Source of the DNA: Ophelia neglecta
Taxonomy: Eukaryota
Assembly: GCA_965285935.1 (NCBI GenBank)
Contig: OZ260664.1
Location: forward strand, 11,594,001 to 11,658,000
Length of the DNA: 64,000 bases
Direction: 5' to 3'
This document shows, piece after piece, positions 26,101-63,530 of this stretch. Under the pieces are notes generated by a model. That model ran no database searches and had not been told where the DNA came from. It was given only the letters and a program-made list of their open reading frames with translations. Position 1 is the stretch's first letter. Each line of letters begins with the position of its first letter. The position numbers and the translations under genes were made by a program.

Positions 26101-27149
26101 ACTTCTATGTAATCTATGTTGTAACCTTTGTGAACGTCACTCATGATTATCGTGGCAAAGAATGGGTTAATCCGGCATGACCCTTTCGTATGGCTATGGT
26201 AATGTCCTGCTTTATCCTAGACCTTTGTAAAGCATAAATCAGAGTTATTTTCAATATGTCTGCATGAAGCTAGTTATTGTGACTCCTCAAATATGCTTGG
26301 ACAAAATAATTTCAATGAAGCGCCCGCTACGTTTTGGGGTCTAGTATATACGACATTTACCATAAAATCATGTAGATGTAAAAAAACAAACAACGTTTGT
26401 TGGCAGTTTCTTGTGCCATGATTATAAAGATATAGCGGCAATAGGTATCAACGTGTGTTTATGATTTAAGCGGAATATTTTCACAGTTAGGCTTATGTAA
26501 AATTTTGATTATTATAGTTGATCTGTTTTTGTCAGGTGGCTCATTGTTTAACCGATGACTGCCCACATGGTCTCACACATAGAGCTGTATGCGATTACAG
26601 AGAGTTCTTGTCTCGGTCTCTTCGTCAAAGACGCATGTTAGTTCTTAACTGTTCCATTTGTTGGTCGATATGTGCAGTCAACCGCCAGCAGGTGCTACCT
26701 TTAATAGATTCTACTGCTAAGACCAGTCTAATCATTTAAAAGAGGTGTAGTTCAAAACTTTACATCAGGAATTAATGGTCACATTTGTATTATACCCGAT
26801 GGGTACACCCACTATGTTTAAGGCAAATTATTACTGGTACTTACATTTTCTGTCCTGACTGGCAGGCCGTTAGCCCTCTAGCGACAGTTCGTCGAAGGTA
26901 TTGTTATGATCGTACTTACGGTAATTGTAATGCATACCATACTACTAACACAATATCAATCCTGATCCGCAGGGCAGTTGCCTCTTCATATACCCCCTAA
27001 ATTGTAACTGGCCGTCTTCGCACACCCTACAACGCGGTGGTAGCAGAGGGTCTTCATGGCCACATCGTGGCGTGTCATATACCCCTTCTGTGATGTAGAA
27101 ATAAAAACACCCTCCACTACCTTGTTTTCTACATATGGAAATAATATTC

Positions 27150-27544
27150 TTTGTCGACTTCTTTCGCCTCTAGCCACATCATTCATCTCCAATTTAACTT
27201 AATTATACAGTGAAACCTGCCTTAAAGACCACCTGTCTAATCAGACCATATATTTTAGGAACAGAACACTGACTTTCCATTGATTTTGACCTGTCTATTC
27301 AAACCACCTGCCTATAAAGACCACAATTTGTCAGTCCTTTGGGTGGTCTTAATACCCAGGTTTCACTGTAATTAAAATAATTGAGTTGACTAGCAAGTGG
27401 GGTGCACAAATAATAAAAACCTGTATTTATTACCGAAATACAATCAAAATCGAAATTACTCCTGATACTATGATAATTATTAATGTTTATCACTGACTAG
27501 CCAAATTCGACTTATCGTCATGGGGAGGCGCCCGATAGGACCCC
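27150..27544 (-). repeat. Split direct repeat B2 (395 bp), 3' terminus of the element
   Basis: TTTGTCGACTTC...GATAGGACCCC, a copy of 29022-29416. Confidence 0.95.
27208..27368. mobile_element. 161-bp Tc1/mariner(pogo)-type MITE inside repeat B2
   Basis: TIR CAGTGAAACCTG...CAGGTTTCACTG with TA on both sides; internal GACCACC subrepeats. Confidence 0.85.
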
Positions 27545-27860
27545 TCTCAGCTGACTTCATTTAAACTTTATATTTTATATCAACGAAAATTACTCCTTGT
27601 TATCACTAGAATCAGATACTGATAGTCTGAACATCATGTAAGAACTTCCTCCTGTTCTACCAATCTTCTCTTCCCCTTCCAATGAGTCACCTGCAACTGA
27701 CTTGATCATCATGTAATTTATAACATCTGGCATAACTTTAAATAAATCCAGCACCCCTCCCTCACTTTTACATATTGTTACTACTATAACCTCCTCTTAT
27801 CTATGACACACTCCTTAAAAAGCCTAATCATCACATCTTACTTTACCCTATAGAGGTACA

Positions 27861-28329
27861 TTCTTGCTCAATATTAACTATACATGGTTCAGCCTCCAGG
27901 CCACACCCTTCAGCCTCACTCCTTATAATGCTTCTAGCTCAAGATTAACTATACATGGTTCAGCCTCCAGGCCACCCAAGAGGTAACACCCTTCAGCCTC
28001 ACCCCTTATAATGCTTCTTGCTCAAGATTAACTGTACATGGTTCAGCCTCCAGGCCACCCAAGAGGTAACACCCTTCAGCCTCACTCCTTATAATGCTTC
28101 TTGCTCAAGATTAACTATACATGGTTCAGCCTCCAGGCCACCCAAGAGGTAACACCCTTCAGCCTCACTCCTTATAATGCTTCTTGCTCAAGATTAACTA
28201 TACATGGTTCAGCCTCCAGGCCACCCAAGAGGTAACACCCTTCAGCCTCACTCCTTATAATGCTTCTTGCTCAAAATCAACTAAACATAGTTCAGCCTTC
28301 CAGGCCACCCAAGAGGTAACACCCTTCAG
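27861..28329. repeat. 83-bp tandem array (about 5.6 units) in the A2-B2 spacer
   Basis: Units start at 27861 (12-bp deletion), 27932, 28015, 28098, 28181 and 28264: TTCTTGCTCAAGATTAACTATACATGGTTCAGCCTCCAGGCCACCCAAGAGGTAACACCCTTCAGCCTCACTCCTTATAATGC. Confidence 0.95.
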
Positions 28330-28730
28330 ACCCTATTTAGGCTAGTACTCCATTTACATTATACTATTGCTCCAATTGCATACTATGCATGCTCATTTAA
28401 GTTTCCAGGTCACTCAACAGTTAAGTCCTGTCTTACTACCCAACTTTCTGGGTCCCATGTTATCACAATCAATCTCAAATGATTCTTCAGATCCCCCAAG
28501 GTGTAACACCCTTCCAATTTTCTTAACCTTACTGGCACCTATGATGTAATATTGCCTAGGCCTTTCTATTTCTACAAAAGTTATCAGTCCAGGCCAAGGG
28601 GGTAATTACCCTTCCAGTCAAACTATGGAGCCCTAGCAGTGCCAATGTGCAGCCTGGCCTTAAAACACCAGACTAACTAATAATTAACACTACTTCTACC
28701 CCTCACCTCATATGGGTGGCTGTGGGTGGG

Positions 28731-29024
28731 AAAGCTGTCTGTCTAGCTTTCCTGCTGCCTGCTAAATCAAAGATGGCTACACGTGCTACGTCCTCGATCA
28801 CCTGATGTGTGCCTGGCGCCCCCTGCCCATATACCATTTACTGTCAAGTCACGTACGCCATACCCAACTAGTCCCAGCAGTAGTATAGCAATAGCCATGG
28901 AAAATAATGCATACTGCTAGCGAAGTAGTATTGCCACAGGCAAAAACATAGTACTCCCTAAATACAAGGAGGCCCGAGTCGAAAGGTGACAAAACATGTT
29001 ATCGCCTTGCGATAAAATATATTT
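28731..29024 (-). repeat. Split direct repeat A2 (294 bp), abutting B1
   Basis: Copy of 35463-35756; shares TTT (29022-29024) with B1. Confidence 0.95.
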
Positions 29025-29416
29025 GTCGACTTCTTTCGCCTCTAGCCACATCATTCATCTCCAATTTAACTTAATTATACAGTGAAACCTGCCTTAAAGA
29101 CCACCTGTCTAATCAGACCATATATTTTAGGAACAGAACACTGACTTTCCATTGATTTTGACCTGTCTATTCAAACCACCTGCCTATAAAGACCACAATT
29201 TTTCAGTCCTTTGGGTGGTCTTAATACCCAGGTTTCACTGTAATTAAAATAATTGAGCTGACTAGCAAGTGGGGTGCACAAATAATAAAAACCTGTATTT
29301 ATTACCGAAATACAATCAAAATCGAAATTACTCCTGATACTATGATAATTATTAATGTTTATCACTGACTAGCCAAATTCGACTTATCGTCATGGGGAGG
29401 CGCCCGATAGGACCCC
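29022..29416 (-). repeat. Split direct repeat B1 (395 bp)
   Basis: Matches 27150-27544 with two substitutions seen (29202/27330 and 29258/27386). Confidence 0.95.
29080..29240. mobile_element. Same 161-bp MITE inside repeat B1
   Basis: Same TIRs and TA flanks as 27208-27368. Confidence 0.85.
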
Positions 29417-29764: not shown

Positions 29765-30739
29765 TCACTGATTTATTAAAACATCTGGCCTAATGTAATT
29801 CAAAAAAGCATAGGACTTCCATCTCCCCATAAGCCTGATTTGCTCCTGGGAACTGCCATTCATAGCCATCTGAGTTGCCCTACCTAGCCTAAATGAATGT
29901 GTATTAAAGCAATCTGAGTCCAGTCCTAATTGACAAATGCACCTTTTCAAAACATTGACCACCTGGTTCCTGGAGAGGGCATGTGATTCCAGGTTCTTTT
30001 TAAACAGTGGACCTGCTTCCTCCCCTCTTAACTGCATGTATTGCCCTAAAGCTTGTACTGGGCAATAAGAACCTTTCACTTCTTTCACTTTTATCTTTGG
30101 GGTAAACCCTTGGCTATGCTTATATTTCTCAAAATTAATAATGTAAGCATTGACCCTACCATCAGGCGACCAAGACCAGCTTAATTGTTTCAACTGCAGT
30201 GTATTTGTCTCATTGCCAGCAGTGACAGCTTCCCCAACCCTGAGACAACCATAAAACAAGGTTAGAAAAAGGGCCCTATATAGGACCTGTTCATCCCTGG
30301 GCAACCCTATGTAGCTAAGTTGAGCTAACACCTTTTGTAATAATGTTAAGGTTATTGGCAACAAATGTTTCTGCCCCTGAGCACAACGTTTAACTCCTGC
30401 CATTAGTTTGGCAACCACAAAGGATGAGGTTATATCTGGTAGCCTCCATAACCTATGGTAAAAAGCTATAGCTGACAAATGTGTGGAGATTGTGGCATAT
30501 TTCCTGCCAAGTGTAAACAAATGACAAATAAATGCACTTAACACTGTGACCATATCAGTCTGCTGGTATGGGACCATAGAAGATGTTTGTACGAAATTCA
30601 TATAAGATTGCCAGTGCTTAGCATATTGTCTAAAAGAGGCTTCTTCCATTGAGGCAAGGATCAGTCTGCTCCCCACAGATTGAAGTTTTCGGGCCGAAGA
30701 TGATAAGGCACTGAAGTTGATCGCGGTTGCAATCCCCAA
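29765..30739 (-). CDS. Tyrosine recombinase (YR), open frame intact, overlapping the RNase H end
   Basis: Catalytic signature LRVGE ... KH ... HSFRLGRAT ... GRWKS ... LNYIR. First ATG at 30649; the ORF-track start is TTG. Confidence 0.95.
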   Translation of the reverse strand: MGIATAINFSALSSSARKLQSVGSRLILASMEEASFRQYAKHWQSYMNFVQTSSMVPYQQTDMVTVLSAFICHLFTLGRKYATISTHLSAIAFYHRLWRLPDITSSFVVAKLMAGVKRCAQGQKHLLPITLTLLQKVLAQLSYIGLPRDEQVLYRALFLTLFYGCLRVGEAVTAGNETNTLQLKQLSWSWSPDGRVNAYIINFEKYKHSQGFTPKIKVKEVKGSYCPVQALGQYMQLRGEEAGPLFKKNLESHALSRNQVVNVLKRCICQLGLDSDCFNTHSFRLGRATQMAMNGSSQEQIRLMGRWKSYAFLNYIRPDVLINQ

Positions 30740-32422
30740 GCTTGTAGGTTGTGTGCTGACACCTTCTGTCGAGAAATAAGATCACAAGTTATGTTCTTTG
30801 TACCAGGCAAATGTTCTGCCCTAATAAAGATGTTATGTTTCAATTGTACCAAAACCATTCACCTGATTAATGTCATGATATGTCTAATAGGGGAGGTCTG
30901 TTTATTCAATGCAAACACTACCCCTAAATTGTCACAATGGAAGGTAATGTGGCAGTTTGCCAACTCCTGTGCAAACATATTGAGAAGTACAAAAATTGGA
31001 AACAATTCTAGAATTGCTATGTCTAGCTCTCTCCAGTTGACAGGCCATAGGCCGTGAATCCAATTAGTACCAAATGTGCCTCCATAACCAGATTTAGAGG
31101 AATCAGTATACAGATTGATATTCTGTTGATCAAACATGTCTGCCCATAACATCATTGTTACCCCATTGTACTCTTTGAGGAAGTGTTCCCACATTTCAAG
31201 ATCCATTCTCATAGCCCTGTCCACCTTTACCTTATGCCAAGCAAGTTCTTTTCCCACTAATGGCATTGTACAACCTTCTTAAGAAAGGACGGCCCGGTCT
31301 AACTACTATGGAAGCAAATGCCAGACAACCAATGGCTGACCTTAATTCTCTGCCTGTGACCACCTCTTGTCTTTGAATTTGTGCTATTTTCTCCCTGTAT
31401 GCCTTTATCTTGTCTACTGGCAGCCTAGTTATCATTTGTACTGAATCAAGTTCTAACCCAAGGGAAACCATTACCAGTGCAGGCCCTACAGTTTTCTCCT
31501 CTGCTATGGGGACACCTACCTCCATACACAATGCTTTGAAATCCTGCAGATATTTATGACAAATGTTGTATTCCTTATTGAGAAACATGAAATCATCCAA
31601 AACCTTCACCACAAATTCCACCCCGAATTGAGTTCTCATAATCCATTTCAAGGCATCCGAAAATGCCTCAAAAATTTTACACGAAGCTGAACACCCCATT
31701 TGTAAACAGCGATCATAATAATATAAATTCTTCCAGGTGAACCCAAAAAGATGATACTGTGAGGGGTGCACCGGAATGATGCGAAAAGCATGTGCTAAAT
31801 CTGTTTTAGCCATAAAAACACGAGGCCCTTGCCCTCTTATTATTTTGATGGCATCCTCAATGCTTTGATACTTTACTGTGGCTGACTCCCTGGGGATGTT
31901 AGTATTAACTGCTGCTTCATTGTAAGGGTATGAAAGATTGTGCAGCAATCTATACTGCCCTGGAGTGGACTTCTCCCTAATGGCAAGAGGTGTGCATTTA
32001 AAATTGTCTAGTGGTGGTTTATTAAAGGGGCCCGCTATTCTTCCAGCCTGCAGCTCTTTGGACAAATTTGCCTCCACTGCCTCTGGGTTCATCAGAGCAG
32101 ATCTAGCATTATTACACGACAGAGACGTATCTTCCCCTACAAATGGGATCTTAAAGCCCTCCGAAAACCCTTTCACTAACGGATCCCTGAGCCTGGCAGG
32201 GTATTTGCTTAAGTACTTAACTAAGTTGTTAATGTTTACTGGGGTTGTCAGTTTTGTAGCCGGGGCACTCGCAGTCTCTGTGCTTCCCTGAACATATGTA
32301 GCAGTCATGTCTCCAGCGGCACTTTGGGTCATTGCACTTTCCTTGGAGGTGATAGGCCCTGCAGAAACCATATGGCGGTACCTGTATACTGGCTGCCTCC
32401 CCCTGATCTTGTCCCCTTTCAA
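30661..32422 (-). pseudogene. pol (reverse transcriptase + RNase H), disrupted
   Basis: RT motifs KTDLAHAFRIIP, CLQMGCSASCKIF, VLDDF, LGLELDS. Frameshift near 31250. RNase H motifs LYTDSS, ILELFPI, HCDN, HLPG-N-CDLISR. In-frame TGA at 30859-30861. Confidence 0.9.
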
Positions 32423-33457
32423 AGCTGCTTTTGGGACGAAAACTATTAGCTCCCCTGCTACAGTTTGCCCTCAATGATAACTTAAATGACAGGTCTGGTC
32501 TGGTATGATCCCAGGGATACCACACGGTAGCTCTACCAGCCCTGAACTCCCCGTCATACCATGCCTAATCTGCTCCCCACTCTGCCAATTCCCGTACCTT
32601 GTTAGCGTGAACCAGCAATGCTTTACATTCCAGTGGAAATTTCTCACTGTATATCTGGGAAAATATGTCAAATGCCCTGCTCCATTGTAAAATATTCAAG
32701 TCTTTAAATTGCTTTCTCTGTAGCTTCAACCTAGGCTCGTCCCCATCTAAATCAATCCTCAGGGCCCCCTTTTTCCAATCTGCTTCTTTATGCTGCCCCA
32801 ATAAATCTCCCAATTCTACAAATTGGTGTTGCCAAATTTTTTGTTTTAACTTCATAGGTACACTAGCCCCTAGTGGAATGTCGTATAAATCTTTAGCTTG
32901 ATTGTCACATGAAGCTATAGCTGGACTATCGTACGGAGCTCTAGCTGACCTCTGAGGAACTACCTGTATCTGCTCTCCTTTGTGCTGTGTAAAATTTACC
33001 TCCTGTTCAGAGAACATGGATGTACAAATCTCAGCATTAGAGCCACCTATGGTAGCTGTGTCAAATGGCTTCTCCCCTAGTATATCTGGGCCCCCTGGGG
33101 TTGTATTACCTGAACCCTGCTTCTGTTGACTGGTTCCTGTGGTGACCTTTGTGGTATTCTCTGTATTGTTATTGACTGGTATGTGTCTATAATTGTTGTC
33201 CCTGAAGTGCTGGCTGCACCACTGAGAATCACTGATGTCAATAATTCCAGTTTCTTTTCTAGTCCTGACATCCTTTCCTCCATCCCGGAATTAGGAAGCT
33301 CTACTTCGTGTCCCACCCTATTCTGTTTTTCTCCTATATTGCCACTTGCCTCCCCCTCACCCCTTTTTCTTGTTAGTCTCCCTTGCGCTTTGCTTTTCTC
33401 AGGAAGTACTGGAACTTGATCCATGTTATCCCTTGCCCGTTTCTTTCCCCTAGGCAT
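32229..33457 (-). pseudogene. gag-like ORF1, disrupted
   Basis: ATG at 33457 (MPRGKKRARD). One frameshift lies between about 33290 and 33080, joining the 32565-33017 frame. An in-frame TAG at 32565-32567 falls in D*AWYDGEFR (the W-x-x-YD-x-x-FR motif of DIRS/Ngaro gag). C-terminal Cys/His knuckle CRAYHLQGKCNDPKCRWRHDCYICSGKH. Confidence 0.85.
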
Positions 33458-33543
33458 GATGTCCTCTGAAAAATATTTCTGCCAAAAAAACACAAATTAA
33501 ACTCGCAACATTGTAAACTGTTCCCTTTATATAATTCAAATTA

Positions 33544-33710
33544 CAGTGAAACTTGTATATTAATACTTTCCAAGGAACTGTCAAATGATGGTTTATATGG
33601 GCAGGTGGTCAGAAAACCAATGGAAAGATTGGTATTCTGCTTCTAAAAGGGGTGTTCTGATTTTACCAGTGTTTTGTTTCGAGAGGTGGTCTTCCAGACA
33701 AGTTTCACTG
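33544..33710. mobile_element. 167-bp diverged MITE of the same family, opposite orientation, upstream of gag
   Basis: TIR CAGTGAAACTTGT...ACAAGTTTCACTG with TA flanks; the reverse complement aligns with the B-repeat MITE (AAGACCACCT, CTTTCCATTG, ACCACCTGCC). Confidence 0.8.
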
Positions 33711-33793
33711 TATTAATTTGGCAAGCAGTTCTATTGTTTCCCACAGTTTTGGACGCAGCGAACAAGCAAAGCGACGCCAACAAAAGGTACATT

Positions 33794-34060
33794 TAGCCAC
33801 TTACAATGCCGGCCGCAGCGAGCCTCTTCACACGGTACTATAGCCACTTACGGTGAAGCCGCGCGAACCGCCTCTACCTGGTTCTATAGCCACTTACAGT
33901 AAAGGCCGCGCGAACCGCCATTACCCGGTTCTATAGCTACTTACAGTAAAGGCCGCGCGAACCGCCTAATACCTGTTCTATAGCCACTTACAGTATAGGC
34001 CGCGCGAACTGCCCAATACCTGGTTCTATAGCCACTTACAGTAAAGGGCCGCGCGAACTC
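33794..34060. repeat. 46-48-bp tandem array (about 5.7 units) between the SGNH ORF and gag
   Basis: Units start at 33794, 33841, 33887, 33934, 33981 and 34029: TAGCCACTTACAGTAAAGGCCGCGCGAACCGCC...GTTCTA. Confidence 0.92.
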
Positions 34061-34690
34061 CAAACCGCATTAGAAACAACCGAAGCCACTAGATTTTTGC
34101 CTTTCATTAGTCGAAACTTGTATTTAATGGCACAAATTATTATGCCACCCTGAGTATTTTCCCCCGAGAGACATTAACAGCACCTTAAAATCAAGCATAT
34201 AACGTAGTCTTGAAACTCATCAACTCCAAAATTCATTTGGACCTCCCATACCGTGCACCAGAAAACTACACCCTGCCTAATCCCTCTATGTACTATAATT
34301 TTCTGCCCACATGCATGCATGTATTTGTCAGTCCTGGCCACCCAAGGGGTAACACCAGCTAACCCTGTCTAACCTATCCACATAACCCCCTGTGCTATTA
34401 CATTTGTTTATGTGCATGTAAGGGGTGGGGGGGGGGGGGCATCTATCGCTGTTTTTGTGCAGCAGGCTTACTACTAATATGAAAAGAATGTCTCTGTTTC
34501 CTTCATTTTAGGTTATAATTATCTATTACATAAATATTACATAAAATTGCTTATTTCGAAAAGTCGATATTCAACCATGTATATCATGCACAAATCAACA
34601 AATTTGGAATGGCGATATTTTGATATGTAGTATATCAATGACCCTCCTACCGTCCCCCTCCTCCACCCCTAGCCCTACATATATCTGTCC

Positions 34691-35371
34691 CTAATCCCTA
34701 CTTGACTGTGCTTTCCCGATCAGTTTAAAACTTGCCCTTCTAATTGATCGTACATAGCTTTCCCTTCCCTCTTTCTTGTTTGGGTGGATCCCATCCCAAG
34801 ACCATTGTTCCACATCCATGGTTTTGCCCTTGTTATTCTCCCAAAACCCCTCGTGTGTCCAATACATAATCTTGTCATTATCCTCTGCCATTGTTCTTAA
34901 TATTCTATTAAAATGCCCCACCTTTTCCCTAAACTGCTGTGCTGACATAGCTCCTAGGCCCCCCTCCCTCCACAAACAACTGCAGACCATGGCCTGGCTA
35001 GCGCCCTCCTCCAGGCACCATTCGGCCAGCCCTATCACTGCCCCTGCCGCCTGCAATGGCGATATGCTAAGTGAAGTGAGGTCATTTGTCCCAATATCTA
35101 ACAAAATAATGCACCCTTTTTGCAACCCCCTCGCGATTACCCTGCGCGCATGTATGCCAAAATGTCCAACAACCTTTAGACCCGGCTGGGCGGCAAAAGT
35201 AAGGCGATCCAATTTTCCAGACATTCTCAAATGGTCTATCACCCCACCATTGTCTCCCCCAGTGCCTATGACCTTGTCTGCTGGGGACTGGAACTTGCCT
35301 ATTCTACCCCATATGTGTTGTTCCATCCCGGTTATGAAACTGTGCCCACCGATAACTAAATGTTCCTTCAT
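34691..35371 (-). CDS. SGNH/GDSL-type hydrolase (esterase), 226 aa, intact, retrotransposon-encoded
   Basis: Block I VIGGHSF (nucleophile Ser), block III LDIGTNDL, block V WDGIHPN (DxxH). ATG start with no interruptions. Confidence 0.9.
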   Translation of the reverse strand: MKEHLVIGGHSFITGMEQHIWGRIGKFQSPADKVIGTGGDNGGVIDHLRMSGKLDRLTFAAQPGLKVVGHFGIHARRVIARGLQKGCIILLDIGTNDLTSLSISPLQAAGAVIGLAEWCLEEGASQAMVCSCLWREGGLGAMSAQQFREKVGHFNRILRTMAEDNDKIMYWTHEGFWENNKGKTMDVEQWSWDGIHPNKKEGRESYVRSIRRASFKLIGKAQSSRD

Positions 35372-35462
35372 GTTAAGGTAGCGTATCTTGGCTATATAAT
35401 CACCCTTTAGGAACTATAAAACCGCCTTTACCTTGTAGTTATTGCTTCAAACCCCGTGAACT

Positions 35463-35756
35463 AAAGCTGTCTGTCTAGCTTTCCTGCTGCCTGCTAAATC
35501 AAAGATGGCTACACGTGCTACGTCCTCGATCACCTGATGTGTGCCTGGCGCCCCCTGCCCATATACCATTTACTGTCAAGTCACGTACGCCATACCCAAC
35601 TAGTCCCAGCAGTAGTATAGCAATAGCCATGGAAAATAATGCATACTGCTAGCGAAGTAGTATTGCCACAGGCAAAAACATAGTACTCCCTAAATACAAG
35701 GAGGCCCGAGTCGAAAGGTGACAAAACATGTTATCGCCTTGCGATAAAATATATTT
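35463..35756 (-). repeat. Split direct repeat A1 (294 bp), 5' terminus of the element
   Basis: Identical by eye to 28731-29024 (AAAGCTGTCTGTCTAGC...GCGATAAAATATATTT). Confidence 0.95.
35500..35590 (-). promoter_or_regulatory. Candidate Pol II promoter within repeat A (duplicated in A2)
   Basis: Minus-strand TATA-like GTATATGG (35566) about 28 nt before Inr-like TCAG (35537); E-box CACGTG 35512-35517; YY1-like AAGATGGC 35502-35509. Motif inspection only. Confidence 0.4.
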
Positions 35757-38184
35757 ATTTTCAATGAAAATCACATTATAGTAAAAAAAGAACTATAAAC
35801 TATACACCTATTTATCCAAGACCGGCATGCCTAAAGCACTATTGTACACAGTTCGGCAAATTTAGAAAGGGGAGATTTGAGGCAAGAACGGTAATGAAGC
35901 TTTTCAGCTGTAAATCTATCTAGTGGATGAAAGTGTTTTCCTTCGACTTAGATTAGACGAGTATTAATACAATGTTATATCTATCAACACTTTATTGTGA
36001 ACGAATATTAGCTTTGATGAAAGTACTAATAAATGTATTTTTGTTTATCATCAAACAAATTTTACTTGAAGGGAAGGGCATTATAATGGATCATCTTCTG
36101 ATAAGATTGATTCCCGCTGATATTTAATATCTTCCGTCGGAACATACACGCATAAGATTTTTCGAAGATTCTTATTCCATTAATTTTACCATCGATTATC
36201 AGTATCTGATTATTGTTATATATCCGGCGGCAGAAGTTGAACATTTGGATAAGTAGGCAAAGCACAACAGTTGCTTTCAAAAAGTGCCACTTATCTGACG
36301 TTAATATACATTAATGTTATGTCGAGCGTAGCTCGAGGTGTGCCAAGCTGCACCATGATGGGCCGCGGGTCGTCGCATCACAGTGAACGAGGTCCAGAGC
36401 GCTTTACCAGTTAGGCATATAATCGTGTTAAGATGTTGAGAAAATGTGTAGCCATATGTTTTGTTTCTGGGACGTATATTAGATGTCTATTGATTATCGT
36501 GTAGCATATAAGCCTCGCTGGAAATTCGCATTGACTGTATGAATGTAGCCCAAAAAAAACCACAATAATTAATTTCCGTAGAACGGAGTTTAAAGATACA
36601 AATTAGATGGCACTTGGGCAATTATTTCCTGCGGCGACTGAATTTATTATGAAGTCAGCATGCTTAAAAGCCGCATGCTTAGTAGGATGTATTGCAGATG
36701 TTGACTATATCTACTCATTAGTTGGGCAGAGCTACTACTGTGGCTGAAGAATATAGCTAGTATGTTGAGGGCCTAGCGGCCTTTGGAACCGTGTATGTCA
36801 CCATGGACCATATGTTTGCTTTGAATTTTCTCTTCGAACATAACAAATCAGCAAAAAAGAATTATTCTATTTAAGCCGTGTGATCACCACCTGTGGCTAT
36901 ACATTTTCGAGGTGCTAGCTTAAATCAGTCTTTGTGTCTAGTTACAAAAAAAGGTGTTATCTAGTTATGGTAGGCCTTTTGTTTAATTACTTTCATGTTT
37001 TGTTGCACTTCAAATTTTTTTATCGACAACTGTTACAATCATTTGTCATGGTTCAGCCACTCCTTCCCGGATATCGCTAACGAATGCCTGACGGAAAGAA
37101 ACCCTGCAAGAAAAAAGTATCCGGTGGTAATAGTCATCTCGTTTGCAGCTTCTTTTTCTCGTGTATTCAAAAAAGTTCCGACATGGATATTTCTGCTGTT
37201 TTATAAGCAGAAATTTGGGCTGCTCGAGGGAAGCCTATCTATCGTGAGTGCTGTGACTATTATGCATTTACATGGATAAGCCAAGTCAGCTGAAGAAAAA
37301 TGCCAATAACCCTTCACTGTTCTTTTAACACGACAAAATATATTTTGCATGACTGCTTATAGCATAATACCCATCTGGCTGATTCCAAACTCACGAAGAA
37401 CTGTTAAATAATTTTATCCCAAAATAGATGTTAAGTTGTGTCATTTTTTTTCAACATCTTATGACAAATTGATCAAAACCGACCCTCACTGTTGAAGAAT
37501 CTGAAGATCGCAAGGAAAGGCTAGCACGCGCACCTTAATCCAAGTCTGATATATTTTTTGTTTTAGCTTTCCTGAATTTTTAAACAGCATACCATAATTG
37601 GATATTTTAATGTTCCTTTTGCGTAATTTTTAAGAATAACTTCCCATGCCTTCATGTTTTTCACTTGTTACTCATTGTACTCTGGTATTGTACACAACTT
37701 AAATTCATTAGAATAGAAGGTCAAACGATTATTTGGTGGGCGGCTTCTCCTCGCCAGTGAGCTATAAATATGTTCTATATTGGTTTAGAACCGTCGGGTT
37801 GTAATTGTGCATATAAACATAAGGGTTTTATGAGCTAGCAGGTTCTAGCTAGAGAGATAGAAGCTACCCTTTGCGCCCACTGGCAGAATTAAAAAGATTC
37901 AGTTGTCTAGCTATGGGTAAATTTAAACGTTTGATGGATATATTTTTATGTTAATTTTCTTTGTCTGCCGGGCCATTCTCGTTTTGTTCAGATACCTAAA
38001 ACTCTCGAACAAATATGTCGGACAAAAGGCAAGAAAGTCTAAGGAATAATTTACTGCCCAACAGGTATAAGAAACTTGCTATTACCGACAACATAGTGAT
38101 GTGGTTGTGTCAATTTAAGGCAGAGTGGGAAAAGTGGTGTGTTAATCAACATTTACCACATAAGTTCAAAGAAAATTGAAAATA

Positions 38185-38371: not shown

Positions 38372-41300
38372 TCAATGCCTCTTAGCCACCACAGCAGCAT
38401 ATGAAGGAGGTGGCACAGTCTCCTCTGTTTGTGAATCTTGTTCGTAAGCTGGGTTACGGGCCGCTGAAGTCGTACGCTGTGTGCCTGTGTCGCCCACTTT
38501 ATTCGGCCGACAGTACCTTTTGGCCAGCAATCCAGCAACTACTATAATTGCTATGATTAGAAGCGGCAGACCGACTGACAATCCAAGAACAAATGCACGG
38601 TTGTTCCCTGTCAAAATATATGAAAATGCGATAACCCGCTGTGATTTGTTTATTGTAAATAATTAATTAGCTACTAAATACAACCACAAATAAAGATTAA
38701 TATTGATGTTATCTCTTGTTAAGTATGTTTGAATAAAGTCGGACGAACAGTTTGAGTTTTGACAGTCCTCCAGATAATGACAGGCATTTCCTTTTATGGA
38801 TCTTTGACACCAAGCACATCCGGCAACAGAAATGCACGACCTATATAAGCATTGAAGAGTTAATCGAAAGTAAATACTGCTAAATACTATATCCACATAT
38901 GCGAGAATGTCGTCTGCCTCTTCCATTCAATCACTGTTATGGAAATTGTCATAATGCTAAATGTGTATAAGTTATATCTTACTCAAATGTATCCTGTTGT
39001 CCGCAGAGAGGATCATAACACCTTTCCAGATCTTTTATTTGAGGCAATTCGTGTTGTATTTGGGCTTGTACATCAATACCCGCTTCTTTTGGTATGCAAA
39101 GATTGTGGCCACTGATGTAACAAATACAAGTTCAGTCGCACGTTAATGTCAGTAAAGATATCAAGTGGCATTACATACAATTTGTCAATACTAATCTCGT
39201 TGCAAACTTCTTTTCTTTAAGTAGTATTATGTTTGAGACTCTACCGCTGACGACTCCAGGTAATTTCCGTTCTATTTATTGGTATATTGCTGATTAATGA
39301 CGGTTGCTTGGTCTGAAGCATATTAACACCGGTTAATTCCAGGCTTATCGGCGTTAAATGGATAGCTTACTTGTCATCGAATGTATCGGTACAGAAATGA
39401 TAATCATCAGTGTCGGTGAAGCACGGGCATCGACATGAGGTGTCGCCTCCAATTGTACATTTCAAAGGTAACCTAGATATCTGGGTAAAATGGAATGGCC
39501 TGTAAGGGTCGTTCATGTTCTTAGTGTATCAATTGACATATTTTAAACGTTCCAATATCATAAGACATGAATCAAATAAAAGAGTGTATGCGACGGATAA
39601 ATGAAGAATATCCGGCCAATATCTTCTGCCGTGCCAGTTGCTATTGACTGGTTTATCTTTTAAATGAATAATTGAGAATATATTTTAAAAAAGGTTTTAG
39701 GTGGAGGTATGTTGTAAAAAGTACAGCTGTCAGACAATTTTTCATTTAGTTGATTTCTTAGATTTGGGCTGAAAGAGCCGAATTAGCAGGAAATACCAAC
39801 TTCGTCAACACAGTTACAGGTCGGCACGTTTCCAGACCTTTTCTTCATACCAAGAAACACATTTGTTCCCCGCACGTCATGTATAACTAGATTAAGTTTG
39901 CGAATGTCCGAAATGGGTCCATTGACACTTATCTAAACAATGATACAATTAAATGATAAGACACGCTGCGGAATGAAAAAACACCACATTCCAGTGATGA
40001 CAAATATTTAAATATAAGGCCGGATTAAAAACATTATTTAACAATCCTATTGTTGAAAGTATATGATGAATTATTGAAGATATTGATCACATGTTTTCGG
40101 TTTAGCGTACAACGTAACATACTATACCAATTTTGTACATCGTGTGCCTTGGACCGCAAAATGAGTGATAGTTATTAGCACCTAAGGGCCTGGTAGGGGC
40201 TGGGCGGGTATTTGTTAACAATGAATTTATGAAAACATTTTATCTCAAGATCAGAAAAATGCATGACAGCTTACCTGGAATGATATATGCTTACTATGGC
40301 CTACTATGGCGATACATAAATAAATGCTTAACTATTTAAAGCAGTAAAATTAATCGCAAAAGTGTATTCATATACTTTTTTGACGGTATTTTTTCAGGTC
40401 ATTAGAATAATCCAAGGTCAAACAATAATATGCTTCCAACAATATAGTCATTGAATTACTAGCAGATAAAATTAAATGATTAACAAAGAATATTCTGTTT
40501 TACCTCTTCAGGAAATGACGTCATGAAGATAGGTATCACAATATACTAATCTTTTTTTTACCACGAAGTTTAGTTATATGTTGTAGTCACTTGTAATAAC
40601 TTAGTAAACAAAAGCAAGCACATGAGCTTGGTGACCCTTCTTCTTTGAAGAATCTAGCAATTTAAAATGTCCACATAACAAAAATGTGCATATACAGTTA
40701 TATGACCACTGGCCTTTCAACTGTACAGTTATATAGCCGATTCAAGAACAAATTCGTAAGCTGAGACCACAGCCATATGGAAAGGTGCTCAAATGTACTA
40801 AAGGCTTGCCGACCTGGTTTGGAACCAAAAAAAAAGCCACAAACACAAATCTATAGTCAATTTTTTCAGTGCCCAATCTCCACTCAACAAACAAAACTGT
40901 AATATTAAAATCATTCATGAAGTTTATCTAAGAAAACGTGATTTTTCCATGGTACCTATTGACAAATTAATTATCTAAATTTTAAGAATCAACCATATCA
41001 ATCTATCTATTAGCTACACAAGTGGTTAAGTTTCGTTTTGACATTATTATCGCGGATACATTGAAAAATTGAGGCTGCTATCGTGCACTTTGGTTATATA
41101 GAGATAAAATAGTTTAATAAAGTCTTTGGTAGCACTTGCTCTTCAAATGCTAAATGACAAACCCTTTTGATCCACAGACCATGAGCCAACGGCGATTTAT
41201 CACCCACCTCGTAAGAAACTTGTTTCTGCAGCGAGGAATATTGGTTACACTCGTGAATAAACATGTTGCCTCCGCGAATTAGAAACTCAGCCAACTGCGG

Positions 41301-44300
41301 CTGCTGAAATAATGAACATTGTAATTAGCATCCATATATACTGGTCGACAGTTATGGCACAATAAAATGGTTTCTGATATTGGGTTACCTTTTGACTTAT
41401 GTGAACATTTTCTATATAAATATCCTCCTGCAATTCGGAGACGAAGCCTTCATCGATCACTAGATAACCATCGATGTCGACCAAAAAGCATCTAGAAACA
41501 CAATCCCCAACAACTTATGTGTGACAGTAGCAGTAAAAAATCTTTTTGTGGTGCAATTCAATTGATTGAAACCATGGTTTCTGTCTTTATATTATTGCCA
41601 GACCATTATATTCCGGTGGGATGGGGTGGGTAAATTTGTATCTAAAGTAATGAGTAAAAATAAAGGAAATAACATGCTTCCTATGTGTTGAATATTTTTC
41701 TTTCCAGAATGGACTAAAAATTACTTTGTTTTCAATAACTTTAAGAGTTGCCTTCTCCCCCTAAAGCCAAATATTCCTTCACTATTTCAGGGCCTACAAA
41801 TACCGTGTTTTCATTAATTTTATGTAGGTTTTCTTAACGATGTTCAATACTGTGGGCACCAACCGATTATTTTCCTCTTGGCACTGAGAAAACTTTTTCC
41901 TGACATTTGTGTACATAAACCCGACAGGAACATCAATGGCGATTACACCGGCAATTTTCACATAAAAGTCCCTATCCCTGTAAAATAAAACAGTAGGTCT
42001 TTATTTGCCAGAGTTATCACAGTAAAGGTCGTATTCTCATACTACTACCGCCTTTCTCATAATCGTGTAGATCTCACTCCTTCTGAGGACACTGAGATAT
42101 CGTCAAGTTACTAAGAGCATTGCGTCCCTCTATAAAGGATGGGCAGTTTTATTTTTTCAAATGCCAATGCGGCCATTATTGATTGTATAATCTTTGGCTG
42201 CCTATGGTGGTGTAGGTTGCAGTGACGTAATTGGTCTTTCCCCACGCAATGGCGCCCCCTGTTGGGCTGTTCTAGAGCTTTCAGGACCGACAATAATATC
42301 TAGCTATCTGGCCAGTGATTGGCCAATAAAGCTAGCCTAGCTGAATAGCATGCCGGGAAATGTGTTATTCAACATCTTGATAAAGGCCCCGCGGTAGACA
42401 ATGAGTGGTGACATAGAGGTAATATTTTATTATATAATATCATTATGTTTACCAAATCGATTGGCTGGCTTTATGCTTTGATTGACACTTGACTATTTTT
42501 GCTTTATGCAAATCAGCCAACTACGCTATTTTAACAACTACTACGCGCCGGAAAATGACATGCACTACTCTAACACTAGTAACAACGAGAGTGGATGCCC
42601 GACCGACAAAACATAACCCATAACCACGAACTTTCTATAAGACATAGTCTTAATTCACCAATAACCAGCAGCCGCATCCCCATAAAAATATGTATCCAGT
42701 TGCCTAGCTTTAATACTATCGCCATGTAATTAATCTTAAAAAACTTGATTCCACTTGCTATGCATTGTCTTTTACTGCTTAATACAATTCTTTCTACACC
42801 TTTAAAAAACAGTGAATTGAAAGTCACATGAATATGAACCACTCAATAGTTGATTATGTGAGGGCAAGGCAGAATTTCGAAATATTGAATATTAACAAAA
42901 ATTCACCCTGGAAACGTCAGAGCTTTGCTGATGGTCACGACATATCCGGCCCCGAATGCATCCAGATATGGCGAAGAAATCACAGTTTGCCGAGGATAGG
43001 CCAAGGTCCTATGGTACCTTTAATAAAGAAGGGCACGTATCTCTAATAAATTCATGCATGTAGAATATGGTGCTGAGTATAACACTTCTATTTGAAATTA
43101 GCAAATTTGCAAATAAAGCAACACATGGCAAGATATGATATAACAATATCAGTAAATTAATAATTGGCTTAACGGTTTCTAGTTCAATATTTGATATTAT
43201 TAAAAAGTCAGTTTAAAAACAGTTCAATATTTGATATTATTAAAAAGTCAGTTTAAAAACAGCACTTGTTCCAAAATAAATATAACTGCTTTCGCAAAGT
43301 GTAGGGTAAAGCAAAAATAAACGGCTCAGAGGTTTAATCTAGGCAAAGGTTGAATGTACCATATACGAGTCTGCGATGGACATAACTTTCGGGCAAATTT
43401 GAGAATACGGTTGATATTATTCCCAAGACATAGTGAATTTAACGAAATAAATGCTTATCGAAAGTTGTACAAAGTAGTGGCAGCCCGAGGAGGAAACGAA
43501 AAATCCACGCTTATATTATGACTGACCATACCTATTTAGATTGGATGTGTGGCGGTACAAGTGGGGGGGGGGTTGGGGGGGGGGGGGCGGTGATTGAAGG
43601 AAGTGCTTCAGAAGGAACGTATGACCAGTGGTGGCAGTTTGCTACATGTATTCAAATGTTAAGTACAGTCCAGTTCTATTATAGTGAAAGGAGGGCTTTA
43701 ATTCTATATAAATGCAATATAGGCGCATTTTAAACATATCCCTTGCAAGTATAAATGGCTGCCTTACCAGCCTCTACGGGTAGGGTCATAATTTTTGTTC
43801 AAAGTAACCCCGGGTGAAATCCGAATCACTCCCTGAGGAGTTGCGATATATCTCCAGACCACATGGGTTGGGTCAGCTGAAGCACCGAACCAGACATCGT
43901 GCACCTTCGAGGTCCACCTCAAAGCTTCCAATACGCCATCCTGAAATACTTCGATATTCCAATAAAGATTGCACGTAAATAAATTGGTATAATAAGAAGA
44001 AAAACATGTGTACTAATAATGTGCTTTTAGAAAGAAAAACTTGCATTCAACCTAGAGAAAAGTAACGTCTACAATTTAATACCGAAAACACATCATTTGA
44101 GGCGCCGTGTTTTATAATTTTCTCATAACGTTGGACATCTTTGGAGCTCTCCTCTGTGTCAATGTACCGAAACGGATTCTTGAAGGCTTTGGAAGCAAAT
44201 TTCACCGCCGTCTGACCTGTTTGGATTGATTTATTTTATTATTACAGTATATTTTTAACATCTAAGACTGCAACTATAATGCATTTATGTTAAGAATTGC

Positions 44301-47300
44301 TAGTCATGCTAATAATACCTTATTTGGTGATCACAAGAATACATACATTACCTTTCAACGCTTTTCTTTGGAAATGTCTACATGTTTGACTTTCATCTAT
44401 GGTGCTGATATTTAATTGGTGGTATGTGAAAGGGATTTCTAACAATATGTTTTTCTCTAATAACCTAAAAGTGAATTCTCCTTCTGCCAGAACAACACAC
44501 ACTTTGAACTTGGTTCCTGGCACCTAACGAAATATTTAAATTGGCACTTTTCAAAAACATACTTTTCTTGTCGGATATGTCAATTGAGATGGTAGATCAA
44601 ATAGTAAGATGTTTATTTATACATAACAAGATATGCAAATAGCCTACCACGTAGGCATGCTACGACAACAATGTGAATAGTCGAAATGTCAACGTTACCA
44701 AAGTCCAGCTGAAAGTGGCACTATGTTTTACTGTTTCGACCCCTCTAAATATGTCTCCTTTTGATATCACACTTGGAATAATCGCAGTCCAATTGCCAGT
44801 TTTCTCGCTAGAATATTCAAATTAATTGATAGATATTACGAGGATGGACGAAAATGGCTCATGTTAATCTACACACATCGGAGTAGATAAAAACCGGCAT
44901 TTACGTGTACTTTGTACTGACACCGTCACGAAACGATTGAATATTTTAGAAGCATGTATGATCCGCCTGCGGCGAAACCCAGTGTAATGTTTACAACCCT
45001 ATAGAATATACTTGCTGTTCAGCTTTGCAATATTACCAGGCATCCTTTAAAATAAAACTTAATTTTGCAATTAAAATAGTGGTAGTGGCGACATAAATTA
45101 CAACTTGTAATGTTCAACATGTTTCATATATGATATAGTGTATGGGTTCTAGTTGCCATTGCAACATATTTAAACACATTTGCAGTAAAAAGAATGCAAT
45201 GCTGTTGAGTGACCTTTACCCCTCAGCCCAGAGCTAGACGCCATGTGCACATATCTCATTGGGATTAAACATCATCTGTTGCAGATGTCGTGTCCAATCA
45301 TGATACACGCATGACTTGCTTTTGGGGAACTAGAGAGTGTGTAAATCGGTCGAGCAACTAGGAGTAAGTTGTAAAACCGAGGGACCAGATGAAAAGTGCA
45401 GGAGCGAGTTAAACAAGCGAGGGGTCTGGATAAATTTACAAATCTGCCACGGTGTCTGACGCTTCTGTTGAATTAGAAATGATGCCTGTGCTATAAGCAT
45501 GGCTCATTTCCCGCTGGAAAGCCAGACACGCTTCGTTTCACTATGAGTAATAATTCTTTACTGTTCCCAAGGATGTGTCACTGTGCTGGAAGCGATAAGA
45601 CGCAGGTCTTTAACAACACCGTTTTTTTTTACTCGAGCCTGCTTTAATCCTGCAAATGATTTGCCCTATTTTAATACTTAATTTGATTTATCATGTGTTT
45701 GCACATTTAATTTGACTATATATTAAAATATGTTCCACGCAAGCTTATTCGAATTACATTACCATTACAAATGCAATATATGCCCTCACCACTTTTTGTT
45801 ATTCGCAAAACACATACATTGGACATGAACATATATGCCACATACATATGATAACATACATTTTTCACTTAGGGACTGCGAGACAGGGTGAGAGCGACAT
45901 CTACCTATCAACGTGATCGCTCATGATCTTGCATTTGCCGGAGCATTCCGAACACTATCCCGGAGTTACCCAGGCCCGGCTGACATCTTGTCAACTGCGG
46001 GATTGCCGGGTAAACCTTCCTAGCCTTCTAGGTCATAGCCTGGGTCACCCCCCCCCCCTTTGTCGCATCCTTGTAAATGGATGATGCTCAATTAACTGGC
46101 TTCCAACCTTCCCATTAGGCCTGTAGCATGCCCACCATGGGTTGAGGCCGAATGGAGCCGAAATATCCCCCGCTTGTGATCGGACACGAACAAGCATTAT
46201 GTCGGTCACGCATCAGCCGCTTTTAACTCTGAACACCTTAGACAGCTGTCCCACAGATGAACGTTTGTTGCTATAAACGTATATCCCAATGGGCATTCCC
46301 TGGTTATATAATGACATGACCGAAACTGTTTAAAAATACCCTTTTTACTTTTGGATTTTATGAATTTACCTGTTTTATTTTCCCTTGCTTTTTTAACTCG
46401 CTCTTCGACTTTTCATCTCGACCCTCCCTTTTATAACTCGCTCCTCGACACTCGACCAATTTACATACTGGAAACACCAAATAGGCGGTTGCGGGGCTGC
46501 GCGTCCTGGTTCTTGATGAACAGTTATGGACTAACTATTCATTTTGTCCGCCGATTCATCTCGGCGACCACATGCAATAAAACCAAAGTGAAGATAAAAA
46601 GCAATTAATCTACCTTATAATCTTGTTGATAAGTTTGCCACTGTCAGGATAACGTTCAAGCTCTTTGATGTGTAGGGATATGACATCGTCCTTTACTGTT
46701 TGTGGTCTTGGTAGTAGTGGATGAGAAAGTGTCTGACCTTCCGTGTCAATGACAAAAGCATACGAAAGGACGCCACTTCCAACCTAAATGCAAACTTTAT
46801 TGTTAATACACACATTGACTACTAGTGTGAACAAAAGAGGTATGTATCTCAAGTAAAAAGTCTATACAGGCAACTGCGTGATGTTTTCTGCAACCAGGAC
46901 ATCCGCAAGCACTGTTAACTCGTTCTTTTTATTTCCTTACGTCGTGTAAAGCTCCCCATAGCTCCACATTGCAAGCGATGTCCAATTTCATTTAATGTGT
47001 TCATTTAATTCCCTTGCCAGCTTTCTTACAATACAAAAATTGGGGATTTGTGATTTTTGGCCAGCAACAAACTGTTCCTTATTAATACCCGATGTTTCAA
47101 TGGATAGTTATTGATAAGCGTTTTAGATTCATCTGCGGGTACCTACTCCCGTTAGTTTCCTATTATTTAGAATTGATGGACCGTAGTTGAGAACACCTTA
47201 AATATATGGCCAGTGTGTCCTTATGTATACCAGGGAACCTATCATATCTGTACCCTTTAAACAATGAAATAATGCCTCTTTAATAATCGTGTTGGCATAA

Positions 47301-61354: not shown

Positions 61355-63530
61355 AGCCTGCTGCTGACAATTCCAAATTGGGACTAATTATATGGAAATT
61401 GTTTTATTTATCCATTTTATTTGGTATGATGCATTTTCACTGCTGTTATATTAAGGTTTAACAGCTTGTAATGGCAAAACTACTTACTTGTCATCGAATT
61501 TATCAGTGCAGAAATGATAACTATCAGTATCAGTGAAGCATGGGCATCGACACGAGGTGGCGCGTCCCGTTGGGCATTCCAAAGGTAACCTAGATATCTG
61601 GGTAAATGGCATGTCGTGTAAACGATCTATGATGTTCATAATGTATCAAACGACATATTTTAAACGTTTCTATATCGACATATATCAAATTAATTAGTTT
61701 ATACGATGGATAATTAACGAATATATCCCTTCTGCCATGTTTGTTGCTATCAATGCATAAACTGGTTTACCTCAAGATTGGTGTTAAGAAAGGGGTTGGG
61801 GAAGTGCTATGTTGAAAATAGTACAGCAGTCAGTCAATTTTCTTCGACCGACTCAGTAGCTTTCAAATATACTTGCTGAAAGAGGCCGAATAAGCAGGAA
61901 ATACAAACTTTTTGTCAACACAGTCACAGATCGGCTCGTTTCCAGACCCTTGTTTCATGCCTAGAAATACGTTTGTTTCCTGAACTTCGTGTATCTCGAT
62001 CAGATTACTTAGGGCAGGGTTCGAAATAGATCCTTGGACATTAATCTAAAATGAATATAATTACCTGCTTAGACTCACAGCAGACTGGAAAACACGCACC
62101 GAATTCCAGTAATGACATGTATGTAATCATACGCTCGGTTTTAAAAATATTTTACGTCACAAACCTATTATTCAATTTACATGATGATTTATTAAAGGCA
62201 TCGAAAAGAAGTTTTCAATTTAGCATACAATATAACAGATTATAACCCTATAATATTAATGATAGTCATAACCACCTGCGGACGTGGTAGTGGTTGGTGG
62301 GCGGGCTAGTGTTACCAAAGAAATTAGGAAAACATTTTTATCTCTAGCAAACATAAATGCATGACAGCTCATCTAGAAAAACGGCCCGTTAGCATGGCCT
62401 ACAATGGCGACAACAATATTATTAAGACAATTGAAAAAATTCCTTGCAGACAAAGTAAAATAATTAAAAATATTCCGTTTTCAAATCTGTGAGAAATCAT
62501 CAGGAACTAAAGTTATACAGATGTACCGTAAAATACTAATTATTTATCTTTTTTACCACATATTTTAGTATAATGGAGTAGTCGGTTATCACAGCTAGTA
62601 CACAAATACAAGGTTATCTCCTTCGTAAGCCTTCTAATGGGAATAATCTTGAAAATCAAAAAATCAAGTATTAATGTCAAATACGAGTTATAACACTAGC
62701 TTTCCAATGGCGATTCAAGGTCAAAGTCAAGATATGTGGTCAGGGTCATATGCGAAATTAGTCCAATGTGCTAAAGGTCTGTCAACCTTTTTGAAACAAA
62801 ATATATACCACAGATAGATTTACTGTCATTTTTAGCATTTTATCTCTACTCAACAACAAAAATATAATATCAAAAACATTCATAAAGTTTAAATGAGAAG
62901 GTGAATTTTCTATCGTGACCCTTTGACTCAATACCTATCGAAATTGTATGAATAAACCACAGCAATCAGCAACACAGGTGGTTTAGTTTCGTGTTGACAT
63001 CGTTTTCCCGGACACGCTGAAAATTTGACGCTGCTATCGTGCATTTTCGTAATGCCGAGATTAGATAGCTCAAGAAATTCTTCGGTAGCACTTGCCCGTC
63101 ACATGGTAGGGACTAACTCTTTTGGTCCACACCCTATTACCCCATGGTGTTATGTCACCGACCTCGTAAGATACTTGTTTTTGCAGCGAGGAATATTGGT
63201 TACACTCTCGAGTATCCATGTAGAAATTCAGCCAGTTGCGTCTCATGAATAATTAAAATTGTATTTATCACCAAATATATAGTGGTAATAATGACACAAT
63301 TTAAAAAATGTCTTGTAGTGGTTTACCTTTTGAAATAAGTGAACATTTTCTATGTTACAGTCTATTTGCCATTCGGGTGTGACGAAGTCTTGATTGATCA
63401 CTAAATAACCATCGATATCGACTAAAAAGCATCTGGAAACACGATGTTCAACTACCAATAATGTAATTTACAATGTGACAATGGGAGTTTAAATTAGTTT
63501 ATGACGCAGCCCAATTGATTAAAACCAGAG
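61355..63530 (-). pseudogene. Partial, pseudogenised paralogue of the CACHD1-like gene (homologues of exons 20-23 plus introns)
   Basis: Exon homologues at 63432-63327 (CFLVDIDGYLVI), 63244-63163 (acceptor CAG changed to CAT and a 14-bp frameshifting deletion), 62045-61909 and 61597-61488 (CRCPCFTD). Intron similarity to about 39240-41580. No homologues of exons 24-26 seen. Confidence 0.8.

Follow-up and report, generated by a model that had tools for sequence, protein, structure and literature searches.

A predicted leader intron enclosing an SGNH esterase gene ahead of gag in a Ngaro-type retrotransposon of Ophelia neglecta

Introduction

How does a retrotransposon translate gag when another gene stands in front of it? 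The question is raised by an element in the window, a 64,000-nt stretch of Ophelia neglecta DNA (contig OZ260664.1, positions 11,594,001 to 11,658,000), whose first ORF encodes a predicted esterase and whose gag begins only after a long spacer rich in ATGs. It touches on two wider questions: by what means the ORFs of tyrosine-recombinase (YR) retrotransposons are expressed, and why SGNH esterases are captured again and again by unrelated retroelements. The preliminary description of the locus had proposed that the esterase ORF sits inside a removable 2-kb intron of the gag/pol transcript, whose splicing might serve as a switch between enzyme and capsid. Here we weigh this proposal against the relatives of the element, DNA contigs and the rival explanations.

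Results

A young Ngaro-type element with an esterase ORF in front

The element runs on the minus strand in the order A1–SGNH esterase–gag–RT/RH–YR–B1–A2–B2.

35463..35756, minus: split direct repeat A1, the 5' end of the element, 294/294 identical to A2
34691..35371, minus: intact SGNH/GDSL esterase ORF, 226 aa (Pfam PF00657, E 2.2e-5; PF13472)
33458..34690, minus: non-coding spacer from the SGNH stop to gag, 1233 nt with 23 ATGs
32229..33457, minus: putative gag with a C-terminal Cys/His-rich finger; the C-terminal piece matches gag of relatives
30859..32371, minus: broken RT and RNase H (RH) region (Pfam RVT_1)
29765..30649, minus: intact tyrosine recombinase ORF (Pfam PF00589; 30 homologues)
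29020..29416, minus: repeat B1 with a MITE (29078-29242) and AATAAA at 29303; 400/404 aligned letters equal B2
28731..29024, minus: repeat A2, identical to A1 over 294 nt
27546..28730, minus: A2-B2 spacer with 83-nt tandem repeats and a donor-like GAG/GTGAGG at 28706 (slashes mark exon-intron boundaries)
27148..27545, minus: repeat B2, the 3' end, with the same MITE (27206-27370) and AATAAA at 27431

It is a young Ngaro-type (split-direct-repeat) YR retrotransposon: its A1 ... B1 A2 B2 plan, with B1 abutting A2, matches that of Ngaro elements in the available part of PMC9210276, and the gag-like, RT/RH and YR ORFs follow in Ngaro-like order, gag, RT and RH being broken. The label is based on layout, the YR tree described below being built from unnamed loci. 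Ngaro elements are set apart from DIRS and PAT by the absence of a methyltransferase domain after RH. None of the 6 ORFs scanned gave a methyltransferase-type Pfam match (the RH piece itself gave no match at all), and YR starts within about 200 nt after RH.

Although young, the copy is disabled, with interruptions in gag, RT and RH and with SGNH and YR open. The gag frame changes after about 126 codons and holds an in-frame stop at 32565-32567; the RT ORF ends at 31232 and the RH piece, in a different frame, at 30859. The window copy therefore cannot be an active source of Gag.

The first ORF is an SGNH/GDSL hydrolase by its motifs and a predicted esterase, with the catalytic blocks GHS (Ser), GTND (Gly-x-Asn-Asp) and DGIH (Asp-x-x-His). 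Its structure model is of low confidence (pLDDT 57), its fold matches being SGNH hydrolases, and the only Atlas leads are mollusc and cnidarian GDSL clusters. Protein-database searches with the SGNH sequence, at near lengths and for longer forms, returned no match, which is weak evidence about fusions. The window has no match to the 3'-type SGNH, and no second SGNH remnant follows YR.

Splice signals around the esterase ORF

The features that bear on the expression of gag are the following.

33466..35431, minus: predicted leader intron of 1966 nt with the whole SGNH ORF inside, proposed from conservation in relatives
35426..35434, minus: predicted leader donor AAG/GTAAAG, intron start at 35431, unchanged in the spanning DNA contigs
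33466..33476, minus: previously noted acceptor ATATTTTTCAG; the same 11 letters precede gag in the relative L012
33479..33495, minus: alternative acceptor, a T-tract ending in GGCAG at 33479, 21 nt before the gag ATG
35502..35509, minus: GCCATCTT, a YY1-like motif downstream of all 7 ATGs of A1
33794..34061, no strand assigned: 47-nt tandem repeats in the spacer
33531..33713, no strand assigned: MITE-like insertion with CAGTGAAAC inverted ends flanked by TA, spanned by the contig 33291-33904
33526..33533, minus: TATA-like box TATATAAA, 76 nt before the gag ATG, a rival internal promoter

The donor had been described as CAAG/GTAAAG at 35432/35431, about 30 nt inside the A1 boundary. Its motif and its place 60 nt before the SGNH ATG (35371) hold, whereas it lies 31 nt past the inner end of A1 (35463) and thus just outside the repeat. 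The acceptor was described correctly: 8 nt separate the end of ...TTTTTTGGCAGAAATATTTTTCAG (33466), whose last letters are TTTTTCAG, from the gag ATG (33457).

With generic, author-made splice matrices untrained on this species, 75 of 3633 minus-strand GT sites (1.2 per kb) reach the score of the leader donor, and 120 of 3603 minus-strand AG sites reach that of the acceptor at 33466. Taken alone, the two window sites are of ordinary strength and within chance. The donor is strong on its exon side and weaker on its intron side, which lacks G at +5; it narrowly outscores every other GT of the 500 nt that precede the SGNH ATG (7.3 vs 7.2 for 35533). At the other end, no acceptor anywhere in the element scores above the AG at 33479 (6.4), which lies 13 nt upstream of 33466; 33466 itself scores 1.7, or -1.5 with a shorter tract. 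The features of a U2-type intron are present at moderate strength: a GT donor, a branch-like TTAAT 43 nt before the ATG, a T-tract and YAG. The acceptor at 33466 is favoured because the last 11 intron letters of the window equal those of L012, and that at 33479 because its T-tract is longer; either exposes the same gag ATG.

A1 holds 7 ATGs, and the short ORFs that they open all close before the leader donor. Downstream of these ATGs, the YY1-like GCCATCTT is a possible mark of the transcription start region: the octamer has 2 matches in 110 kb of host DNA and recurs 290 nt before the SGNH ATG in L005, and is absent from L006 and L017. With transcription starting near it, the SGNH ATG would be the first on unspliced RNA and the gag ATG the first on spliced RNA. 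Scanning is unlikely to take a ribosome from the esterase cistron to gag, as 23 ATGs fill the spacer between them.

The signals recur in diverged relatives

A YR scan of metagenome contigs yielded 50 loci and genome contigs one more (L051); three scans of viral contigs gave no relatives. An intact SGNH ORF stands directly before gag in 3 of the 51 loci (L005, L006 and L014), most of the 51 being too short to tell. The SGNH proteins of these three share only 25%, 22% and 17% identity, respectively, with that of the window; the alignment keeps GHS, GTND and DGIH in L005 and L006, and the last two blocks in the 5'-cut L014.

Where a gag start is visible, 6 of the 8 members of the window's YR group have TTNYAG within 11 nt of it. 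From the end of the motif to the gag start the distance is 8 nt in the window, 11 in L005, -1 in L006, 9 in L012, and 1 in both L013 and L007; L014 shows a weaker T-tract with AAG/TAG, and L023 has no acceptor. Left out of the count were L033 and L037 (gag start unclear) and L003, L011 and L029, which begin inside gag. The motif is found near the gag start in 0 of 2 elements outside the group and at 167 of 4457 background ATGs (3.7%). For the 5 of 7 relatives without the window the binomial P is 1.5e-6, and it is 5e-4 for the 3 of 5 left after also dropping L007 and L013, in which a later Met was picked by likeness; as the motif was fixed after the sequences had been seen and the elements are kin, these values speak of conservation, not of independent origins.

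At the 5' side, both testable relatives carry a GTRAGT donor at most 200 nt before the SGNH ATG, compared with 46 of 820 control windows: GTAAGT at 14 nt and GTGAGT at 181 nt in L005, and GTGAGT at 167 nt in L006. L014, cut at its 5' end, stays outside this count. The leader introns predicted from these sites are:

L005, 5252-7072
L006, 2564-3911

L006 appears to need the splice for its gag start codon. Its gag frame has no ATG at the basic N-terminus, which resembles the M-P-x-K starts of relatives. With TG directly after the acceptor and A as the last exon letter of the best upstream donor, the predicted splice would join A/TG in frame and give an M-P-x-K start as in most of the group; on the unspliced sequence, the next ATG beyond the acceptor lies in another frame. 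An A precedes 25 of 62 upstream GT sites in L006 and is by itself weak evidence; we estimate the whole coincidence at roughly 1 in 100. A precedent for a split start codon is known from env of the springer subclade (available part of PMC12992720).

The spacer of the window tolerates a MITE and tandem repeats yet keeps the T-tract and both AGs, which the MITE leaves intact, and this supports the intron reading. A leader intron containing the esterase is thus likely in the window, because splice signals recur at matching places in relatives; its exact ends are less sure (33466 vs 33479). The proposal of a removable gag-leader intron around the SGNH ORF is thus partly supported, by the conserved positions of donor and acceptor and by the split ATG of L006. 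The preliminary description had asked for conservation across family members, and it is found: the SGNH-before-gag order, the gag-start acceptor and the pre-esterase donor recur in elements with 17-25% SGNH identity.

L007 keeps the gag acceptor and has no SGNH within 1839 nt upstream; the intron may therefore predate its passenger, or the esterase is lost at times. L017 carries a decayed SGNH remnant upstream of YR. This locus (L017:1-2763) is a circular 2.6-kb contig of decayed SGNH, spacer and YR, with no gag or RT, and reads TATTTTTCAT at the place of the gag acceptor, possibly a decayed site. L051 is a partial Ngaro-like YR on a bacterial metagenome-bin contig, probably eukaryotic contamination, and was not used.

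Two SGNH lineages at opposite ends

The YR tree has 37 rows; 14 of the 50 loci, including L031 and L035, were excluded for a match under 150 aa, and L051 came later. In a 27-row group with weak support (83/90) and no 3'-type member, the window is found together with the 5'-type elements, dispersed among the other rows; the four 5'-SGNH elements do not form a single branch within this group. In six loci a 3'-type SGNH directly follows YR; the four of these elements in the tree form one branch (97/92). Among the SGNH proteins of the fetched loci, a 98/98 branch separates the 5'-type from the 3'-type. Four of the six 3'-type esterase ORFs (L019, L030, L035 and L036) have no upstream Met and show a phase-1 TTNYAG acceptor 14-23 nt before the first motif. 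The SGNH of L006 also lies 1.2 kb after a YR, the contig being permuted or tandem, and this weakens L006 as a witness for the leader intron.

DNA contigs across the predicted junction

DNA contigs came from three runs (X1, X2 and X3) of a single sample. Both splice sites are spanned without a break, the donor by 34018-35492 in X1 and X3 and by 34427-35492 in X2, the acceptor by 33291-33904 in X1 and X2 and by 32847-33589 in X3. Contig differences from the window fall mainly in gag-RT, those listed lying at least 1 kb from the splice sites, and none touches the splice sites or the SGNH ORF. A spliced DNA copy, joining 35432 to 33465, is not among the 15 joints listed, a further 66 lying outside the listing; in such contigs variants can appear but also be dropped. 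Over its entire length the element is covered by contigs several times more deeply than the left flank; this suggests that the family is small, though depth is no copy number.

The joint 33291-31231, seen in 2 of the 3 runs, marks a sibling copy that lacks most of gag-RT, with a 3-letter microhomology. As a splice product this deletion was rejected, its ends not being GT-AG. A sigma-70 scan is inapplicable to an animal element and gave a result at chance.

Discussion

A proposed scheme: one promoter, two RNAs

We propose that a single promoter in A1 and a single leader intron serve both genes. Judged from sequence and its conservation, it is probable that the intron is retained for the esterase and the genomic RNA, and removed for Gag and probably RT/RH, which would act in trans. 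Transcription would start in the 3' part of A1. On the RNA that keeps the intron, the esterase ATG would come first and the esterase would be made, with gag out of scanning reach behind the 23 spacer ATGs; at full length this RNA would also be the template for reverse transcription. Splicing from 35431 to 33466 (or 33479) would bring the gag ATG to the front, yielding Gag and probably RT/RH; the genomic RNA would then depend on Gag and RT supplied in trans. Retrotransposons usually show cis preference, and the scheme runs against it. According to the available part of PMC7192593, the RT of DIRS-1 acts in trans and a spliced DIRS-1 reporter RNA is copied back. The absence of visible intron-less copies would therefore need a packaging signal in the intron, or simply reflects a small family.

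The strongest competitor shares this splice and differs only in the source of the esterase: polyadenylation within the intron would give a short RNA for the enzyme, and the full-length genomic RNA would hardly be translated. AATAAA occurs three times each in the spacers of L005 and L006, 108-598 nt after the SGNH stop, and ATTAAA in the spacer of the window (34128) and in L014. However, the spacer of the window has no AATAAA, hexamers resembling poly(A) signals are common in AT-rich DNA and their positions are not conserved; we regard this variant as somewhat unlikely. The gag acceptor could also pair with a donor where the SGNH ORF ends, so that the esterase is kept, in an esterase-Gag fusion or on a short bicistronic RNA. 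Donor-like sites do lie at most 11 nt from the SGNH end in 3 of 4 elements (window 34702, L005:5934, L006:3410), that at 34702 is in frame with 33466, and esterases fused into ORF1p of non-LTR elements are on record (available part of PMC3905857). The phase is not kept, though: L005 is out of frame, the L006 site lies past the stop and gives no ATG, and L014 has none, which makes such a product very improbable.

The remaining alternatives do without the leader intron. In one of them an internal promoter (start near 33500, TATA-like box at 33533) would drive gag from within the spacer, with the esterase as a separate 5' unit and the splice motifs as incidental. Besides the TATATAAA box of the window, 76 nt before the gag ATG, L014 combines a weak acceptor with a strict TATA 56 nt before gag; given a background of 3.3%, the presence of such a box in 2 of 8 group members corresponds to a P of about 0.03. 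Yet the box is missing in the other six, and an internal promoter explains neither the gag-start acceptor of 5 of 7 relatives nor the missing ATG of L006; we find it distinctly unlikely. It is quite improbable, too, that there is no splicing at all, with chance motifs and with gag reached on the unspliced RNA by reinitiation, an IRES or shunting. Such a view is at ease with window sites that are each within chance and with the lack of a spliced DNA copy among the listed joints, but it has to face the conserved position of the acceptor, the split ATG of L006, and 21-23 ATGs in the spacers of the window and L005.

Comparison with known systems

The hydrolase-bearing Ngaro elements of Xenopus (DIRS-53_XT and DIRS-54_XT), as presented in the available part of PMC9210276, share with the window element the A1...B1-A2-B2 split direct repeats, gag-like, RT/RH and YR ORFs and an extra SGNH ORF. 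Their hydrolase, however, follows YR, whereas that of the window precedes gag and has its own ATG. Ngaro hydrolases are described after YR, with their function unproven, in the portions of PMC9210276 and PMC7192593 at hand, and the former portion has no match for splicing or intron. We found neither a 5' esterase nor a leader intron of YR elements in the literature searched, which consisted mostly of listings; PMC3783388 and PMC8556966 contain no hydrolase match.

Metaviridae offer a likeness in expression: their env/ORF3, including the GDSL ORF3 of rotifer LTR elements, is reported to be made from spliced subgenomic RNA (available parts of PMC12992720 and PMC5408684). There, and by prediction here, one transcription unit gives two RNAs, splicing picks the first ORF and a start codon can be split by the junction. 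The polarity is opposite: in Metaviridae gag-pol is unspliced and the accessory gene spliced, while in the window the accessory gene would be unspliced and gag spliced. The non-LTR element ZfL2-1 likewise has an SGNH esterase in its first ORF, but as part of ORF1p, in the position of gag, rather than as a separate ORF before gag; lipid or membrane binding by this esterase is the best lead for function, and our best guess at the role of the window enzyme is drawn from it (available part of PMC3905857).

Several other arrangements resemble parts of the predicted layout. Foamy viruses make pol, a replication gene, from spliced RNA, and an extra ORF stands ahead of gag in Ogre elements (ORF1) and in walleye dermal sarcoma virus (orfC). 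To our knowledge, none of the three removes an upstream ORF by splicing to expose gag. The extra ORFs of Ogre are treated in PMC6431247, as far as the available part goes. The layout predicted here, in which a leader intron houses an enzyme gene and gag depends on splicing, is one that we did not find in print.

The prediction is precise: one junction and two RNAs. If it is true, the RNA that is translated into Gag is separate from the one that is copied. For annotation it carries a warning, as gag genes of this kind can be ATG-less in DNA. That two SGNH lineages, at opposite ends of related elements, are each tied to a splice site suggests that the dose of enzyme relative to Gag matters. More tentatively, and less likely than not, a widespread invertebrate Ngaro lineage may invert the retroviral plan. 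Its genomic RNA would be translated into the captured esterase only, all replication proteins would come from spliced RNA (some gag start codons existing only after splicing), packaging would be obligatorily in trans, and the splicing rate would balance genome and enzyme against Gag and RT; the Ngaro lineage with the 3' hydrolase would have reached splice control of a different SGNH independently and with opposite polarity.

Other features of the window

The same very abundant MITE lies in both B repeats, and a related MITE inside the predicted intron. As B1 and B2 have one MITE in common, its insertion came before the copying (or conversion) of the element. The flanks (35757-35775, 29020-29030 and 27130-27150) resemble the B/A junction and share an AAA core without target duplication, the expected outcome of tyrosine-recombinase integration.

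The GAG/GTGAGG at 28706 on the minus strand is the top-scoring donor of the whole element. It lies 25 nt past A2 and follows this repeat just as the leader donor follows A1. By analogy with retroviral donors, RNA started in A2 could be spliced from it into host genes, or the site could aid read-through of the B1 poly(A) signal.

Outside the element, a multi-block host segment occurs twice, at 39366-41514 and, about 22 kb away, at 61483-63455; the two copies are diverged (74-87%) and are probably paralogous genes. Between them, 45336-46469 holds a pair of 88-nt inverted repeats 958 nt apart, possibly another DNA transposon.
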